The notes: generated from the letters alone by a model not told the origin. Shown: positions 1,527-11,097, counted from the stretch's first letter. The stretch is DNA of 12,076 nucleotides from an uncultured Clostridia bacterium (GCA_937907055.1 CALCTW010000131.1:1-12076); one strand, 5' to 3'. Translations and numbers: made by a program.

Positions 1527-2045
1527 ATGGTGATCCGGACAGAAAGATTGACCATCAGAAAGATCATGGCGGAGGATTGGGAAAGTATCCGGGATATATG
1601 GGTGGATTTTAACGCCGCGCCGCTTTCCGGGTACGATATGCCGCACAGTACAGATGACGCGGATGTAAAAAGCAGGATCGCGAGATGGGCCGCGGCTAAC
1701 AGCGGCACGGAGCATATGTTTTTCGCCGTCTGTATGGAAGAAAAGCTGATCGGGTACATCGCTTTTAACCAAAGAGAAGACGGATACGAGATCGGGTATT
1801 GCTTCCACTCCGCGTACCATCATATGGGCTGCGCGAAGGAAAGCCATCAGGCGTTATTCAGGTATCTTGAGACGATGGGGATCAAGCGCTTCATCGTGCG
1901 GACGGCCCTGCAAAACACGCCTTCTGTGGCCCTGCTGAAGTCGCTTGGCTTTGAACAGATCGGAACAGAGAAAGTATCGTTCTATCAGGACGCGGAGGGA
2001 AATGACATCGTATTTGACGGCGGGATCTTCGCGCTGAAGCGATAA
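1527..2045 (+). CDS. GNAT-family N-acetyltransferase (RimJ/RimL-like, Acetyltransf_3 type)
   Basis: 172 aa. The N-terminus MVIRTERLTIRKIMAEDWESI is typical of RimJ/RimL-like GNATs. The rest has a GNAT-like fold pattern (IGYIAF...EIGYCFHSAYHHMGCAKE...). RBS GAGGAGGAG sits about 8 nt upstream of the ATG. No terminator precedes the next gene. Confidence 0.85.
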   Translation: MVIRTERLTIRKIMAEDWESIRDIWVDFNAAPLSGYDMPHSTDDADVKSRIARWAAANSGTEHMFFAVCMEEKLIGYIAFNQREDGYEIGYCFHSAYHHMGCAKESHQALFRYLETMGIKRFIVRTALQNTPSVALLKSLGFEQIGTEKVSFYQDAEGNDIVFDGGIFALKR

Positions 2046-2099: not shown

Positions 2100-3239
2100 A
2101 TGAAAAAAGGGATCGCGCTGCTGACGGCGGCGATGCTGCTGATGGGACTTTTGACCGGCTGCGCTTTCGCGGCGGGTAGCGGGCTGTACAGGATCGGGGA
2201 TAAAATAGAAGATTTTTCGGTGGAGCTGTGCGACGGAAGCACCTTCACGCTGAGCGAGGCCTGCGCGGAGCGTGATCTGGTGATGATCAATATCTGGGCT
2301 TCCTGGTGCGGCCCCTGCCGGAATGAATTCCCCTTTATGGAGAAGGCGTATGAACAGTATCGGGACAGGGTGGCGCTGGTGTGCCTCTCGATCGATCCCG
2401 GTGATACCAACACGGCGATCGCGGCGTTTATGGAGCGTCAGGGGCTGACCGCCCTTCCGATGGGCTATGACGCCGCGGGGGTGGGAAACCGGCTGGTAAA
2501 GCAGGGCTATCCCACCACGGTGCTGGTGGACAAGGACGGGACTTATGTGTATTACGAATGCGGCAGCCTGCCTTCCGTGGCAGCGTTCACGGAGATGTTT
2601 GACAGATTCCTGAACGGCGGCGCAGCGGCCTGCGCGCTGGACCTGAGCCCGGCGCTGAACGACAGACAATTGACCCTGACCCTGATCCCGGAGAGCGACG
2701 CGGCGGTGATCGACTGCAGCGATGTATTCAGTGCCGAAGATCTGCATTTTGAACACAAGTATGATCATCCGGATTACTGGAGCGTGATGCAATCCGATAT
2801 CCTGATCATGAATTATTCGGGCGCGGATCCTTATCCGGTGATGCGGACGATGCTGTATTATAACGGCACGGTGCCTGCCGGCGTGAACGCGGTCAGCTTT
2901 ATATTGGGCGGCAGGACGTTCAGACTGACGGGACTTGAGCTTCATAAACAGATGGGCATGGATCGGGACCGCGCGTATGAAGCCATGCTGATCCTCTACG
3001 GACCCGACACGATGGCATTCGCGGATGCCGTGATCGCGTACGCGGAGGAAGCGGCGACGAACGGAGAACAGAACACGCTGCAGGCGACGATGGTGCTGCA
3101 CGGAACAGAGGATCTGACGGTGACGCTGAATGCCGAACCGCTGCTGGACCTGTATCACGTGGCGGCCGGCTTCAAGGCGATCGGCGGCCCCGATTACGCG
3201 GGGTATGTGGGGGCAGGAACACCTGCCGCGGAACAGTAA
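2100..3239 (+). CDS. Lipoprotein: N-terminal TlpA/ResA-like thioredoxin (thiol-disulfide oxidoreductase) fused to an unnamed C-terminal FEHKY...LHGTEDL domain (paralog 1)
   Basis: Signal peptide with canonical lipobox LLTGC (Cys21). Thioredoxin active site WASWCGPC (WCGPC encoded at nt 2304-2318), plus the YPTTVLVDKDG pattern typical of the TlpA/AhpC-TSA fold. Residues from about 175 to 379 are homologous to the next two paralogs. RBS GGGAGG lies 8 nt upstream. Confidence 0.85.
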   Translation: MKKGIALLTAAMLLMGLLTGCAFAAGSGLYRIGDKIEDFSVELCDGSTFTLSEACAERDLVMINIWASWCGPCRNEFPFMEKAYEQYRDRVALVCLSIDPGDTNTAIAAFMERQGLTALPMGYDAAGVGNRLVKQGYPTTVLVDKDGTYVYYECGSLPSVAAFTEMFDRFLNGGAAACALDLSPALNDRQLTLTLIPESDAAVIDCSDVFSAEDLHFEHKYDHPDYWSVMQSDILIMNYSGADPYPVMRTMLYYNGTVPAGVNAVSFILGGRTFRLTGLELHKQMGMDRDRAYEAMLILYGPDTMAFADAVIAYAEEAATNGEQNTLQATMVLHGTEDLTVTLNAEPLLDLYHVAAGFKAIGGPDYAGYVGAGTPAAEQ

Positions 3240-3260
3240 AGACCCGGGAGGAAAACAGAT

Positions 3261-3932
3261 TTGAAAAAGACGATTGGCGTGATGCTCGCGGCGGCGCTGC
3301 TTTTTGCTGCCTGTACGGCGCTGGCCGGTACGCTGGACCTGACACCGGTGAAGGAAAGCGAATCCCTTGTGATGCAGGTGGATGAAAAACAGAATATCGC
3401 CCTCATCACCTGCGATAAGGCGCTGAGCGTGGCTGACCGGCATTTTGAACACAAGTATGAGCATCCGAAACGGTGGAGTTTTATCGCTTCGGATATCATC
3501 ATCGGGGATTATTACGGCGCGGAGCCTTATCCTGTGATGCAGACCTGGATCTACTATGAGGGGACCCGGGCGATCAACGCGTACGCCGCGACCTTCCGGA
3601 TCAACGGGAAGGAATATACGGTGACCGGGATCGGAAATGAGGCGCGGCGAACCGGCCAGGAAGGCGATGTGAGCGAGGCGCTGGGCATCATCTACGGACC
3701 GGAAACGCAGGAGCTGATGGTGGCGCTGCATGATTATGAGGGAGAACTGCTCTCCGCCGGAAACTACAGCGGCGGAGTGACCGTGGTGCTGCACGGGACG
3801 GAGGACCTGGAGATCCGGATGAACGCGAAGGCGCTGATGGATTTTTACATCATCGGCAATGTGTTTTCGGAGATCAACGGGTTTGATTATTTCGGCCTGA
3901 CCGGCGGCGGGACCCCGGTGACGGCGCGGTGA
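3261..3932 (+). CDS. Secreted or lipoprotein of unknown function, FEHKYEHP...LHGTEDLE domain (paralog 2)
   Basis: TTG start 9 nt after GGGAGG (3246-3251). Signal peptide MKKTIGVMLAAALLFAACTALAG, with either a weak lipobox (FAAC) or a type I cleavage site (ALA-G). Blocks HFEHKYEHP (3441-3467) and LHGTEDLEI (3789-...) are shared with paralogs 1 and 3. Confidence 0.8.
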   Translation: MKKTIGVMLAAALLFAACTALAGTLDLTPVKESESLVMQVDEKQNIALITCDKALSVADRHFEHKYEHPKRWSFIASDIIIGDYYGAEPYPVMQTWIYYEGTRAINAYAATFRINGKEYTVTGIGNEARRTGQEGDVSEALGIIYGPETQELMVALHDYEGELLSAGNYSGGVTVVLHGTEDLEIRMNAKALMDFYIIGNVFSEINGFDYFGLTGGGTPVTAR

Positions 3933-3962
3933 AGGAAAATAATCAAAATATGGAAAAAATAG

Positions 3963-3991
3963 TTGACAAAGGCAAATAATGTATATATAAT
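3963..3991 (+). promoter_or_regulatory. Perfect consensus sigma-A promoter (TTGACA-17-TATAAT)
   Basis: TTGACA at 3963-3968, an exact 17-nt spacer, then TATAAT at 3986-3991, all within an AT-rich intergenic segment. It would give a 5' UTR of roughly 118 nt for the 4116 gene. Confidence 0.7.
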
Positions 3992-4115
3992 ATAGGCAAT
4001 CACTAATACTCTTAAGATAAAGAAAGTCGATACCTTGTAAAGGTGGAACTATGCATGTGGCACCGTTGAGCAACGATGCCAGACAATAATCGATGATAAA
4101 GAAAGGAATAGAAAA

Positions 4116-4724
4116 ATGAAAAAACATTTATCACGATCTTTTGCTCTACTCTTTTGTTTTGTCCTTGCGCTGAATATTTATTCACCGGCATTGGCGGAGA
4201 TCCCGGACGCTACTTTCCGGGAAATGATCCGGTATTGGATGGGAATCGAGATCCCGGAGGAGATTCCCTGTGTTGAAACACATATCATGGATGAGAATTT
4301 TGTGAGAACAGGTGAGATCAAATATTATTACGAACTGCCGGATGAAAAAACCGGAGAAAGTCATTTTCTTATGATCGTGCCCCGTGATAGTTATCTCTCT
4401 TTTTCTCATCCGGTGCCGGCAGATGAAGAAACGAGCCCGATTGTTGATGAAGAAACAGGCAGAGCACTGGTTTTGCAGATTTGTGAGCGTTATCATCTCT
4501 TTGGAAATGACGGGTCGCTCTCCTATGAGGAATTGCTGGAACAGCGAAATGCTGTGATGTATCCATATCCCATCATCGAACCGACGAAACGCCTTTGGCG
4601 ATGCGTCATGGATGCAGATGCAGAGGGATACGGCAGTGCAGATTTGATGTTCGATATTCAGGATATGAAAGTTGTATATGTGTTTCTTCGATATGAAAAG
4701 TTTGAAATCATATTGGAAAATTGA
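4116..4724 (+). CDS. Secreted hypothetical protein (Sec signal peptide), lower-GC cassette gene
   Basis: 202 aa. MKKHLSRSFALLFCFVLALNIYSPALA-E is a type I signal peptide. RBS AAAGGA lies about 9 nt upstream. I recognise no family. Codon usage and GC content are visibly different from the flanking genes. Confidence 0.7.
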   Translation: MKKHLSRSFALLFCFVLALNIYSPALAEIPDATFREMIRYWMGIEIPEEIPCVETHIMDENFVRTGEIKYYYELPDEKTGESHFLMIVPRDSYLSFSHPVPADEETSPIVDEETGRALVLQICERYHLFGNDGSLSYEELLEQRNAVMYPYPIIEPTKRLWRCVMDADAEGYGSADLMFDIQDMKVVYVFLRYEKFEIILEN

Positions 4725-4740
4725 TTGACCCAAAATGCGA

Positions 4741-4776
4741 AAGCGGAGAACGGCATGGCCGTGACTCCGCTTTTTC
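4741..4776 (+). terminator. Rho-independent terminator of the low-GC cassette
   Basis: GCGGAG (4743-4748) pairs with CTCCGC (4765-4770). An inner CGGC/GCCG stem closes on an ATG loop. TTTTT follows at 4771-4775. Confidence 0.8.
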
Positions 4777-4845
4777 GTTGCGGGGATTACTTGTAAAACC
4801 TGATCGAAAAGCCCGTGCCGCCTGAAGGGACAAGGCGCGCAAGGC

Positions 4846-4874
4846 TTGACAAAGAAAGGGAATCGCGGTATATT
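4846..4874 (+). promoter_or_regulatory. Sigma-A promoter for paralog 3
   Basis: TTGACA (4846-4851), a 17-nt spacer, then TATATT (4869-4874), about 30 nt upstream of the ATG at 4904. Confidence 0.65.
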
Positions 4875-4903
4875 CTATGCATCAAAAAGACGGAGGGTTT
4901 CAG

Positions 4904-5584
4904 ATGAAAAAGTTTTTTGCTTTGATGATGGCATTGGTGCTGATGCTGAGCATCTGCCCGGCATTCGCGGCGGGACTGGATATGTCCTATGTGGATAAGC
5001 ATGCGGATGTGTATTCTGTGTATATTCCGGAGGATGAACCGACCAAGGCGTTTATCGATACGTCCAACGGCTTTGGTGTGGATGAGCTGGCCTTTGAGCA
5101 TAAGTATGAGCATCCCAATCGCTACAGCTACATTTCCACCGATATCATCGTGTTTGATTACGGTACCGATGACGCGGAAGCTTATCTGCGCACCTGGATC
5201 TGCTATGAGGGCACTGAGCCGATCTACGCTACCTCCTGCACCTTTGTGGTGGACGGCGTGAAGTATACGCTGAGCGATCTTTCCGATCCCGATGATATGG
5301 GCGTGGATGACGGCGGCGTGTATCAGGATATGTGCATCCTGTATGACACGAAGAACATGGATGTGCTCTCCGCGCTGTACAGCTTTGTGCAGACCCGGAT
5401 CGAACAGGAAGACTATGACAGCATCGAGATCCCTGTGATCCTGCATGGTACGGAGGATCTGGAGATCGTGATGGGCGGCATGTCCCTGCTGGACCTGTGC
5501 TATATGCTGGATGCCTTTGATTTCATGGGCGCGCTGGCGATGATGGCGCCGCTGAGCAATGCCTCGCCGCTGACCATCGAATGA
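4904..5584 (+). CDS. Secreted or lipoprotein of unknown function, FEHKYEHP...LHGTEDLE domain (paralog 3)
   Basis: I prefer the start at 4904 (MKKFFALMMALVLMLSICPAFAAG), which is 6 nt after GGAGGG. The ORF-track start at 4877 falls on the predicted transcription start region and has no RBS. Blocks AFEHKYEHP (5090-5116) and LHGTEDLEI (5441-...) are shared with paralogs 1 and 2. Confidence 0.8.
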   Translation: MKKFFALMMALVLMLSICPAFAAGLDMSYVDKHADVYSVYIPEDEPTKAFIDTSNGFGVDELAFEHKYEHPNRYSYISTDIIVFDYGTDDAEAYLRTWICYEGTEPIYATSCTFVVDGVKYTLSDLSDPDDMGVDDGGVYQDMCILYDTKNMDVLSALYSFVQTRIEQEDYDSIEIPVILHGTEDLEIVMGGMSLLDLCYMLDAFDFMGALAMMAPLSNASPLTIE

Positions 5585-5604
5585 ATAGAATGAGATGAAT
5601 AATG

Positions 5605-5633
5605 CCCTTCCGTCTTGCGGCGGGAGGGTTTTT
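5605..5633 (+). terminator. Rho-independent terminator
   Basis: CCCTTCCGTC (5605-5614) pairs with GGCGGGAGGG (5619-5628), including two G-U pairs, around a TTGC loop. TTTTT follows at 5629-5633. Confidence 0.75.
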
Positions 5634-6953: not shown

Positions 6954-6982
6954 AGCACAGCCGAAAACGGCTGTGCTTTTTG
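6954..6982 (+). terminator. Rho-independent terminator
   Basis: AGCACAGCCG (6954-6963), an AAAA loop, CGGCTGTGCT (6968-6977), then TTTTT (6978-6982). A second GC-rich hairpin (GCCGCC...GGCGGC, about 6918-6946) lies just upstream. Confidence 0.85.
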
Positions 6983-7188
6983 CGTTAAAAACACACGAAG
7001 GGACGGCGACGGAGGGGAGAATTAATAAACGAAAATGAAAAGAGATTAAATGATGGTTGTACGAAAGAGAAGGGTTACTGAGATTATATTCCGCGGGGAA
7101 ATGGTCTATCATAAGCACTGTCAGGAGGAACAAGGAACCGACTGACAGAGAAAAAAAGAGAACGCCCAAAGGGCAGGAGGAAATGAAA

Positions 7189-7428
7189 ATGAAGACTCAG
7201 ATGAACGAAATGGAACTGAACATGGTGAACGGCGGTATCGAGATGGAAGATGTGATGGACCTTGCGAACCAGGTGGCCGTGGTGGTAGACAAAGCGATCA
7301 AGGGTGTGAACAGCGCGATGCTGCCGGATCACGTGATGATCAACGCGTGCGCCGCCGGTGAGGAAGCCCCCGGAACATTCCTGCCGGGTCTGGTGATCGA
7401 TGGCGGAAGGATGCGCGCCGGCCGCTGA
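7189..7428 (+). CDS. 79-aa peptide precursor with an N-terminal double-glycine (GG) leader; predicted 63-aa acidic core
   Basis: ATG 7189 lies 8 nt after GGAGG (7176-7180). The leader is MKTQMNEMELNMVNGG, with predicted cleavage after nt 7236. It has Val at -4, Leu at -7, Glu at -8 and Met at -12, matching the class II bacteriocin/peptide-pheromone GG-leader consensus. The longer ORF-track start at 7057 has no RBS. Confidence 0.6.
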   Translation: MKTQMNEMELNMVNGGIEMEDVMDLANQVAVVVDKAIKGVNSAMLPDHVMINACAAGEEAPGTFLPGLVIDGGRMRAGR

Positions 7429-7657
7429 GCAAAACGGGAAAGACTGAACAAAACGACAGACCGCGCGGAGATGAGCGCGGAAGATACAAAGCATAACGAA
7501 AGAAAAAAAGACGTGTGCCGGGAACGGCAGAAAGGAAAATGTGGAGAAGATCTTTGAGTACGCGGGACGCTGAGACCGGGAAAGCGTGAAGATGAAAAAA
7601 ACGAGATGAGAAAAAATAAGAAGATCAGATCAGGCGCGGAATGGACGCGCGAAAATG

Positions 7658-7693
7658 AAAAGAGGCATCGCTGAAAAGCGGTGCCTCTTTTTG
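7658..7693. terminator. Bidirectional rho-independent terminator shared by the convergent genes
   Basis: GAGGCATCGC (7662-7671) pairs with GCGGTGCCTC (7678-7687), including one G-U pair, around a TGAAAA loop. It is flanked by an A-run (7658-7661) and a T-run (7688-7692), so either strand reads as a stem followed by Us. Confidence 0.75.
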
Positions 7694-7740
7694 ATGGGAA
7701 CGGACACGCCGGGAAAAGACCTGAGGCGCGCCGGGGAAGA

Positions 7741-9767: not shown

Positions 9768-9800
9768 AAAAGGAAGCAGGGAAAGCCGGCTTCCTTTTTT
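9768..9800 (+). terminator. Rho-independent terminator after ridA
   Basis: GGAAGC (9772-9777) pairs with GCTTCC (9789-9794), with an extra GG/CC pair around a GAAAG loop. An A-run lies upstream and TTTTTT follows at 9795-9800. Confidence 0.7.
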
Positions 9801-11097
9801 GATGCGGGAAAGGGATGAGAAGAGCGGAGAGATGAGCGAAGCAAAGGGGAAGAAGCGCGGCGCGGCAGGGTATGCCGAGCAGGCCGGGCTGAAGACGGGC
9901 GAGCTGCTGCAGCTGGCAAAGGCGCTGGGCTATACAAGGCTGACCGCGGTGCATGAAAAATGGATGCTGCAGATGGTGTACGGGCAGCGGGACATGACGC
10001 TGCAGGCGCACCGCGGCAGCTATAAGACGACATGCCTCTGCGTGGCGCTGGCGGTGATGATGACGGAGATGGGCGGAAAGAACATTCTGTTCATGCGGAA
10101 GACGGACGGCGATGTGGCCGAGGTGCTGCGGCAGGTGAGCGGGATATTGAAGCATGAGGCCATGCGGGCGTGGTGTGAAAGGCGGACAGGGAAGGAACTG
10201 AAGGTGATCCGCGCGACGACCTGTGAGATCTCGACCGGGATGTATACGGCCCCGCGCGGCGCGCCGCAGCTGCTGGGCATGGGAACGGGCGGCAGCCTGA
10301 CCGGCAAGCACGCGGATGTGATCGTGACGGATGACATCGTGAACCTGAAGGACCGCCTGAGCCGGGCGGAAAGAGAGCATACGAAAAGCATATACCGCGA
10401 GCTGCAGAATATCCGCAACCGGGGCGGAAGGATTATCAATACGGGAACACCGTGGCACCGGGACGACTGCTTTTCGCTGATGCCGAAGGCGCTGAAGTAT
10501 GACTACAGGAAAACGAAGCTGATCAGCCGGCGAGAGGCGGCGGAGCTGCGCAGGGCGATGACACCGGGGCTGTTTGCCGCGAACTATGAGCTGCGACATA
10601 TCGCGGAGGAGAACGCGCTGTTCGGGGAGATGCCGGCGATGTTTGACGATGAGGAGCTGCTGCGGGACGGCATCGCGCATATCGACGCGGCCTACGGCGG
10701 CGGAGACTGCACCGCGCTGACCTGCATGAGCCGGATCGGGGATGAGATCTATGTGTACGGACGGCTGTGGCATTGTCATGTGGACGCGGCGCTGAACGCG
10801 ATATTGAATGAATGCGACCGGATGCTGTGCCAGCCGGTGTGGTGCGAAACAAACGCGGATAAGGGTTTCCTGGCGCGGGAGATTCGGGAAAAGGGATACG
10901 CGGCGCGGATGTATCATGAGAGTCAGAACAAGTATTACAAGATATCCACCTTCCTGCGGAAGTGGTGGGGGAATATAAGATTCTATGAGGAGACGGACGC
11001 GGAGTATCTGGAGCAGATCGCGGAGTATTCGGAGGAGGCGGAAGCGGATGACGCGCCGGACAGCTGCGCGACGGCGCTGCGCATCCTGACAAGGTGA
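9799..11097 (+). CDS. terL: Phage terminase large subunit (TerL)-like protein: ATPase plus RNase H-like nuclease domains; start codon uncertain
   Basis: Walker A-like HRGSYKTT (10012-10032). Walker B DVIVTDD (10315-10335). Coupling motif TGTPWHRDD (10441-10467). Nuclease acidic residues in HIDAAYGGGD (from 10681), CETNADKG (Glu at 10846) and ADDAPDSCATAL (11047-11061). Candidate starts are TTG 9799, ATG 9802 and ATG 9832; none has a well-spaced SD. Confidence 0.8.
   Translation: MMRERDEKSGEMSEAKGKKRGAAGYAEQAGLKTGELLQLAKALGYTRLTAVHEKWMLQMVYGQRDMTLQAHRGSYKTTCLCVALAVMMTEMGGKNILFMRKTDGDVAEVLRQVSGILKHEAMRAWCERRTGKELKVIRATTCEISTGMYTAPRGAPQLLGMGTGGSLTGKHADVIVTDDIVNLKDRLSRAEREHTKSIYRELQNIRNRGGRIINTGTPWHRDDCFSLMPKALKYDYRKTKLISRREAAELRRAMTPGLFAANYELRHIAEENALFGEMPAMFDDEELLRDGIAHIDAAYGGGDCTALTCMSRIGDEIYVYGRLWHCHVDAALNAILNECDRMLCQPVWCETNADKGFLAREIREKGYAARMYHESQNKYYKISTFLRKWWGNIRFYEETDAEYLEQIAEYSEEAEADDAPDSCATALRILTR

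Follow-up and report, generated by a model that had tools for sequence, protein, structure and literature searches.

The DNA analysed here (the window) is a 12,076-nucleotide (nt) stretch from an uncultured Clostridia bacterium (GCA_937907055.1, CALCTW010000131.1:1-12076). Between positions 2100 and 5584 it carries three paralogous genes whose products share a domain of about 200 amino acids (aa), and in the first gene this domain is fused to a thioredoxin. An initial annotation, made from the sequence alone, had taken this fusion and the tandem arrangement as a sign that the domain serves the fused reductase as a client or partner. A survey of the whole family leads us to a different reading, in which the domain would be a secreted recognition module that was joined once to a neighbouring thioredoxin lipoprotein. 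The three genes and the parts of the first gene are listed below, with the means by which each was recognized, where ORF stands for open reading frame and HMM for hidden Markov model.

2100-3239 (+), copy 1, 379 aa: lipoprotein signal peptide, TlpA/ResA-like thioredoxin and unnamed domain (ORF, Pfam, NCBIfam, family HMM)
2100-2162 (+), signal peptide of copy 1 with lipobox L18-T19-G20-C21, Cys codon at 2160-2162 (rule-based reading of the translation)
2193-2573 (+), thioredoxin-fold domain of copy 1, residues 32-158 (Pfam AhpC-TSA, E 3.4e-14; Redoxin, E 4.7e-14)
2613-2642 (+), fusion junction of copy 1: thioredoxin homology ends at residue 174 (...FDRFLNGG), then AAACA, then LDLS (BLASTP, N-termini of copies 2 and 3)
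2622-3236 (+), unnamed domain of copy 1, residues 175-379 (BLASTP, family HMM)
3261-3932 (+), copy 2, 223 aa: signal peptide and unnamed domain, TTG start (ORF, family HMM)
4904-5584 (+), copy 3, 226 aa: signal peptide and unnamed domain (ORF, family HMM)

The three ORFs are present with exactly the coordinates and lengths that had been given for them, and their homology, originally read from shared blocks, is borne out by pairwise BLASTP (E 5e-48 to 2e-31). Residues 180-375 of copy 1 are 40% identical to copy 2 (E 5e-48), while copy 3 shares 31% with copy 1 (E 2e-31) and 32% with copy 2 (E 2e-40), and the region common to all three spans the approximately 200 residues of the domain. The motif positions could likewise be reproduced without deviation. 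HFEHKY(D/E)HP lies at 2745-2771 in copy 1 and at 3441-3467 in copy 2, with 26 of the 27 nucleotides identical, and copy 3 has AFEHKYEHP at 5090-5116; LHGTEDL follows at 3096-3116, 3789-3809 and 5441-5461, respectively, which corresponds to a spacing between both blocks of 117, 116 and 117 residues. Gene conversion as the source of the 26/27 match can be ruled out, as synonymous sites are saturated. The overall nucleotide identity among the copies is 50-54%, and where residues are identical the third codon position agrees in just 52-63% of the cases, from which it follows that the duplications are old. In a neighbour-joining tree, the window's three copies form a clade of their own with copies 1 and 2 as sisters, and all three score 352-357 bits over the full family profile.

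In a comparison of the window with the sister contig L008, the pN/pS ratios are 0.31 for copy 1, 0.03 for copy 2 and 0.15 for copy 3, which shows all three genes to be functional and under purifying selection; for copy 2 this includes the part behind a stop codon found in L008. There, codon 133 of copy 2 is changed from CAG to TAG (L008 2986-2988, window nt 3657-3659). This nonsense allele is present in L008 and in at least two other assemblies, and truncated products of 132 and 87 aa recur in several independent assemblies; the gene may have become a pseudogene very recently, or the stop may be read through or recoded.

All three signal peptides had been described as ending in a Cys, with the lipobox of copy 1 regarded as good and the other two as weaker. 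For copy 1 this description stands: on a rule-based reading, the N-terminus of copy 1 consists of MKK and a hydrophobic core followed by L-T-G-C21. Copies 2 and 3 have the A-x-A cleavage sites ALA|G and AFA|A, and their signal-peptide Cys is not conserved. Since such A-x-A sites, usually without a Cys, also terminate most signal peptides across the family, copy 1 is better read as a lipoprotein and copies 2 and 3 as probably secreted proteins that are processed in the ordinary way by signal peptidase I.

The family of the unnamed domain is real but small. With a profile built from copies 1 to 3, exhaustive HMMER searching of 1.84 billion cluster representatives yielded 185 matches at E <= 1e-3, 136 at E <= 1e-10 and 30 at E <= 1e-30. 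Word-indexed homolog searches, carried out with copy 2 and also with a 92-sequence profile, came back almost empty, and it was the exhaustive search that revealed the family. Its members were traced to an uncultured Clostridia metagenome-assembled genome from a sheep-rumen run (PMC7645119) and to assorted metagenome assemblies, and the domain belongs to uncultured Clostridia-type bacteria of gut and rumen metagenomes. It often occurs in multiple copies per genome and normally constitutes a small Sec-secreted protein. A metagenome contig that is unrelated to the window species carries two tandem family genes (L006 3-587 and 733-1467), so the window is not the only place where the family has been amplified locally. 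An apparent giant member, P0024 with 3107 aa and 20 domain stretches, turned out to be an artefact of 20 weak partial matches of about 13 bits each, all of them to one beta-hairpin inside 72-aa Flg_new-like repeats. P0162 and a few other representatives possess a weak PsbP-like C-terminal region.

The initial annotation could not assign the domain to a family, and this holds against current catalogues. There is no match in Pfam (2025), NCBIfam 20 or PHROGs 4; scanning 92 members singly against Pfam at E <= 1 gave no recurrent family, and profile searches of PDB sequences returned only signal-peptide noise. A phage origin was considered and dismissed, as no family member was found on IMG/VR contigs and PHROGs gave no match. 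An AlphaFold2 model of copy 2, computed with the 92-sequence alignment, reached a predicted local distance difference test value (pLDDT) of 95.4 and a predicted template-modelling score (pTM) of 0.87. The predicted fold begins with an N-terminal beta-hairpin, continues with a six-strand antiparallel meander (73-144) and a long helix (147-165), and closes with a beta-hairpin that contains the LHGxED turn (173-187) and two further helices. When this model was compared with the PDB by Foldseek, the best E-value was 0.13 with a TM-score of at most 0.3, and a comparison with BFVD gave nothing convincing either, the best hit being an unnamed protein with E 0.016 and a TM-score of 0.38. As judged from the model, we are thus dealing with an uncatalogued extracytoplasmic alpha/beta domain, and relative to PDB and BFVD it is possibly a candidate for a new fold. 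LHGTEDL is reminiscent of the HGxxD aspartate motif of alpha/beta hydrolases, but the beta-rich predicted fold with its three helices, the lack of a nucleophile elbow and the absence of any hydrolase match in Pfam speak against this assignment.

The signature of the family consists of [SA]-F-x-H-K-Y-E-S, R-x-W-I-x-Y and L-H-G-x-E-D in this order and is met by all three copies of the window. Its two His residues are about 113-123 residues apart, and the domain begins with D-L-S directly after the signal peptide. Residue conservation was counted over 122 aligned domains, in the numbering of copy 2. E/Q139 is present in all 122 domains, followed by G179 (119/122), S73 (117/122), H64 and H178 (112/122 each), R94 (101/122), D78 and D182 (98/122 each, with an acidic residue at 182 in 110/122), D194 (94/122), D26 (92/122) and E181 (90/122). 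D78 and R94 are lost jointly in 15 of 16 cases (Fisher p ~1e-13, with relatedness ignored) and face each other in the predicted hairpin formed by residues 73-82 and 90-101 (78+94 = 82+90), and because they are both co-lost and opposed, this pair is most simply interpreted as a salt bridge in the model. H178 and D182 are also lost together (Fisher p ~4e-5, relatedness again ignored), and both pairs look structural. H64 and H178, on the other hand, are each replaced in about 8% of the members, independently of one another, by T-P in the case of H64 and by S, Y, R or T in the case of H178. This argues against an obligatory catalytic or metal centre with two His residues, although such a centre would be possible in most members, and overall the conservation pattern does not look catalytic.

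Among 146 other representatives of the family, 105 (~72%) are standalone and consist of a signal peptide and the domain, 12 possess N-terminal and 28 C-terminal extensions, and one has both. Partner domains were sought with Pfam in the 30 longest members. P0076, P0078 and P0093 consist of PG_binding_1, an acidic or Pro-rich linker and the domain, while P0089 has a Hanks kinase, a transmembrane helix and a PT linker in front of it. In P0091 a signal peptide and Trypsin_2 precede the domain, and in P0156 a cytoplasmic region and a transmembrane segment. The reverse order is found in P0102, P0142 and P0153, where the domain is followed by DUF6273 with or without TPR, and in P0158, where it is followed by Big_2/PKD. 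The partner domains are all extracytoplasmic, and in the fusions with a kinase, a protease or a thioredoxin the unnamed domain always takes the distal C-terminal position. It is the usual place of sensor or substrate-binding modules, for example PASTA and PDZ. P0089 and P0091 indeed resemble, as a functional analogy, the PknB-type Hanks kinases with their PASTA domains and HtrA with its PDZ domains in carrying the domain C-terminally and distally, but it has neither sequence nor fold similarity to these modules and is mostly found alone and secreted.

DUF6273 recurs not only as a fusion partner: in L003 a family gene is preceded, at a distance of about 100 nt, by a gene for a DUF6273 protein in the same orientation. 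DUF6273 (PF19789) is a C-type-lectin-like ligand-binding domain and a target of diversity-generating retroelements (DGR) in Clostridia and their phages, commonly so in Faecalibacterium-type phages and bacteria (PMC10743442, PMC11792537). It shares with the unnamed domain the occurrence in secreted proteins of gut Clostridia, but it is a different domain, and the window contains neither DUF6273 nor a recognizable reverse transcriptase or DGR. In another locus, the low-GC family member P0150 directly follows, after a gap of 31 nt, a gene (L009 171-2555) whose 794-aa secreted product contains several modules that resemble one another and has no Pfam match.

The N-terminal half of copy 1 had been recognized as an extracytoplasmic WCGPC thioredoxin of the TlpA/ResA type behind a lipobox, and the AhpC-TSA and Redoxin matches over residues 32-158 agree with this. 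The WCGPC active site comprises residues 69-73 (nt 2304-2318) and the cis-Pro loop YPTT residues 137-140. Because the scores stay far below the curated NCBIfam cutoffs for ResA (E 4e-21, 75.7 bits against 170) and TlpA (E 4.6e-14, 52.7 bits against 230), and likewise for DsbE (40.8 bits against 123), it should be regarded as a member of the TlpA-like superfamily and not as an ortholog of ResA or TlpA. The nearest PDB sequences are ResA, pneumococcal Etrx-type and TlpA proteins, and Etrx1 and Etrx2, thioredoxin lipoproteins of the pneumococcal surface, are themselves members of the TlpA/ResA/CcmG-like class (PMC3914529). Copy 1 has the thioredoxin fold, the WCGPC motif, the cis-Pro loop and the lipoprotein signal peptide in common with this class, but differs from its characterised members by the 205-residue C-terminal domain. 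CcdA/DsbD, ResBC and MsrAB were not found among the ten large ORFs of the 12-kb window and could be encoded elsewhere in the genome.

Among the relatives of the thioredoxin half, those nearest to it (55-60% identity) are proteins of 160-176 aa that stand alone, and further close homologs carry other, unnamed C-terminal extensions, which are no remote members of the family either (hhalign probability <1%). The thioredoxin clade nearest to copy 1 is represented in L014 (195-1699) by tandem paralogs, first a 176-aa standalone protein and then a second thioredoxin that is extended at its C-terminus by an unnamed region of at least 150 aa, and a 244-aa thioredoxin with a following 320-aa ORF (L013 894-2612) may represent one interrupted gene; the extensions in L013 and L014 have no Pfam match and are unrelated to the unnamed domain. 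The closest standalone homolog, P0171, adjoins a 484-aa protein with membrane polyferredoxin-type 4Fe-4S domains (Fer4_5, Fer4) fused to a TlpA-like redoxin (L011 552-2006, minus strand), and ABC_membrane/ABC_tran genes are also close by (L011 3915-6959). Judged by its domains, this polyferredoxin-redoxin fusion may provide a CcdA-independent electron route to extracytoplasmic thioredoxins in these anaerobes.

How the two halves of copy 1 came together can be read from the junction. The BLASTP match between copy 1 and P0172, a standalone thioredoxin, stops at residue 174 of the former, opposite residue 169 of 176 in the latter. The following residues 175-179, AAACA, resemble the A-x-A signal-peptide tail of the paralogs, and LDLS is the conserved mature N-terminus of the family. 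The fusion is limited to one 90%-identity cluster of 8 members, and together with the gene order it is kept in 7 contigs from different samples. It is a one-off, recent event that is local to this lineage. A local expansion gave rise to three copies, and the simplest history of the fusion starts from the gene of a TlpA/ResA-like thioredoxin lipoprotein followed by a family gene; a deletion that took away the stop codon together with the spacer and the greater part of the signal peptide of the paralog probably joined both genes. The product would be a membrane-anchored reductase with the module at its C-terminus, where it could act as an appendage for targeting or substrate selection, comparable to PASTA on PknB-type kinases and PDZ on HtrA.

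Based on the extracytoplasmic partners and on the distal C-terminal place in the enzyme fusions, we infer that the domain is an autonomous secreted recognition module, which was fused once to the neighbouring TlpA-like lipoprotein and may target or restrict the reductase; we assign this reading a probability of about 0.45. Alone, the domain would serve as a surface recognition or binding module for a ligand of the envelope or the environment, and it would not be a disulfide substrate of the reductase to which it is fused. Several points weigh against this proposal. The assumption of a binding function follows the logic of domain architecture and the analogy to PASTA and PDZ, and a pure targeting module does not explain the standalone majority. 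The conserved residues H64, S73, D78, R94, E/Q139, H178, E181, D182 and D194 could form a catalytic or metal site, and the arrangement of PG_binding_1 followed by an unknown domain is the classic layout of a cell-wall hydrolase. Furthermore, the contexts outside the window species comprise just 1-11 kb, and the absence of thioredoxin neighbours from them is for this reason a weak negative.

This last point bears on the view from which the analysis started, namely that the fused TlpA-like reductase has in this domain a redox client or a dedicated partner, with the free paralogs as further substrates. It is in accordance with the fusion itself and with the 21-nt adjacency of the thioredoxin and family genes, kept in 7 contigs, as well as with their probable co-transcription, and a metal site in need of a reductase could be suspected behind the two conserved His residues. 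The known clients ScoI, CoxB and apocytochrome c, with which the domain had been compared, are exported proteins that are encoded near or acted on by TlpA/ResA-type reductases. They are defined by conserved Cys motifs (CxxxC, CxxCH), whereas the unnamed domain lacks any conserved Cys: the best column reaches 27/122, 17 of the 122 domains contain no Cys at all and 40 contain one. The domains of copies 1 and 2 have one Cys each, so that an intramolecular disulfide is not possible in them, and copy 3 has four. A thioredoxin-like region is found in none of the 146 other representatives, in which neither a W/F/Y-CxxC thioredoxin motif nor a phmmer match to the thioredoxin half at E <= 10 could be detected, and the Pfam scans of the 30 longest members gave no thioredoxin. 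Conversely, no family gene turns up at E <= 10 on L011-L014, where the four closest thioredoxin homologs are encoded, and these homologs carry other, unrelated extensions. Neighbourhoods were sampled in 5 short metagenome loci and 2 loci from a genome scan, too few for statistics, and no thioredoxin-like ORF is present in these family loci (L001-L007), which is a weak negative in view of the short contexts. A lack of co-occurrence with thioredoxins elsewhere had been named beforehand as an observation that would undercut the client idea, and within these short contigs it is what was found. A client or partner role is thus not supported as a property of the family, the fusion is no evidence for a new redox pathway, and we consider this explanation very improbable.

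Two other explanations address the domain itself. It could be a new extracytoplasmic enzyme, for example a cell-wall hydrolase or esterase or a metal-dependent enzyme, that uses Ser73, His64, His178, Glu181 and Asp182, while its partners merely anchor or localise it. The strong conservation of polar positions, above all of H64, S73, H178, G179 and the acidic residue 182 with the counts given above, would fit an active site, the joint loss of H178 and D182 would mean that both act together, the three PG_binding_1-linker-domain proteins resemble wall hydrolases, and standalone secreted copies suit an autonomous activity. However, both His residues are replaced independently in members whose domain is otherwise conserved, Foldseek found no similarity to solved hydrolases in the PDB, a nucleophile motif of the GxSxG type is missing, and the position as a kinase ectodomain or behind a protease is more typical of sensor or binding modules, and we think that an enzymatic role is unlikely. 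Rather less probable still is a non-covalent wall or surface anchor or scaffold, which would attach to peptidoglycan or to a secondary wall polymer and so keep itself and its fused partners on the Gram-positive surface, with the standalone copies as surface coat or decoy proteins. In the domain-DUF6273 and domain-Big_2 proteins, the domain is indeed the sole candidate anchor after the signal peptide, and divergent, locally amplified paralogs in multiple copies are often seen among surface proteins. An anchor is not needed, though, at the distal end of long Pro/Thr/Glu linkers in proteins that are already anchored, such as the lipobox thioredoxin, the transmembrane kinase and the PG_binding_1 proteins, and the Pfam scans revealed no similarity to SLH, CWB2, LysM or SH3b.

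Around the three genes, the following further features were found.

1527-2045 (+), GNAT (Acetyltransf_3) gene, 54 nt upstream of copy 1 (Pfam PF13302, E 2.5e-21)
3938-4835 (+), strain-specific insert of ~900 bp, GC ~44-48% (blastn against L008, gene tables of L015-L019)
4846-4874 (+), promoter-like site of copy 3, TTGACA-17-TATATT, 11/12 matches (promoter scan)
5604-5629 (+), intrinsic-terminator-like hairpin after copy 3, 11 bp stem followed by a T run

Each family gene is preceded by a Shine-Dalgarno sequence, GGGAGG at 2087-2092 for copy 1 and at 3246-3251 for copy 2, and GGAGGG at 4891-4896 for copy 3. The suggestion that the GNAT gene, copy 1 and copy 2 are co-transcribed remains plausible, as the gaps of 54 and 21 nt between them contained no terminator-like site in a scan; the three are probably on one transcript with GNAT as the first gene, and their order recurs in 6 other contigs. 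Copy 3 seems to form a separate unit with its own promoter and terminator, and the position of the promoter-like site implies that its true start is the ATG at 4904 and not position 4877.

The insert between copies 2 and 3 is missing from L008, which has 23 bp at this place, and from L015-L019 of the same species. It contains a perfect TTGACA-17-TATAAT promoter (3963-3991), an ORF for a 202-aa protein with a signal peptide (4116-4724) and a hairpin with a T-run (~4744-4775), and it looks like a recently acquired single-gene cassette. The 202-aa protein has no match in Pfam, NCBIfam or PHROGs, and we rejected the idea that it is a diverged fourth copy, as the family HMM does not match it, hhalign aligns the signal peptide only, and it lies on a strain-specific insert of low GC. 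A second strain-specific insert is found at 6982-7738, where L008 has 87 bp instead. A small ORF in it (7186-7428) begins with MKMKTQMNEMELNMVNGG, similar to the double-glycine leader of a bacteriocin or peptide; its match to an NCBIfam class IIb bacteriocin model is weak (E 0.056), and there is no PHROG match. At 9799-11097, between a RidA-like and an HD-domain gene, the window encodes a lone homolog of the phage terminase large subunit (PHROG 38, E 2.7e-60; NCBIfam T7-type TerL, E 3.7e-17, below cutoff). No other phage genes are in view, and the gene is kept in the sister contig (L008 7584-8879); it could be what is left of a prophage, or else a gene that has been domesticated.

For the annotation of such loci, the case holds a caution: a single fusion and a tandem amplification suggested a pair of reductase and client, and the family-wide survey traces the fusion to a chance event between adjacent genes in one lineage. 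The domain itself marks a gap in the catalogues. It is well conserved, secreted and confidently foldable, and these properties recommend it for a new domain-of-unknown-function entry and as a target of structure determination. Its fusion partners, among them the kinase ectodomain, the protease, the thioredoxin, the peptidoglycan-binding domain and the DGR-type lectin, place it at the cell surface and offer starting points in the search for its ligand. The recognition-module reading can be extended to a general one, which we regard as doubtful, namely that the new fold is an extracytoplasmic sensor or recognition module of gut and rumen Clostridia for one ligand derived from the envelope or from the host or its diet. 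It would then serve by itself, form the ectodomain of a Hanks kinase, select substrates for a protease and for a thioredoxin, and provide the base on which DGR-type lectin proteins are built. If this is true, the domain would be a module like PASTA for a different ligand, and to identify this ligand would be to connect a signalling kinase, proteolysis, redox repair at the surface and hypervariable lectins through a single cue.

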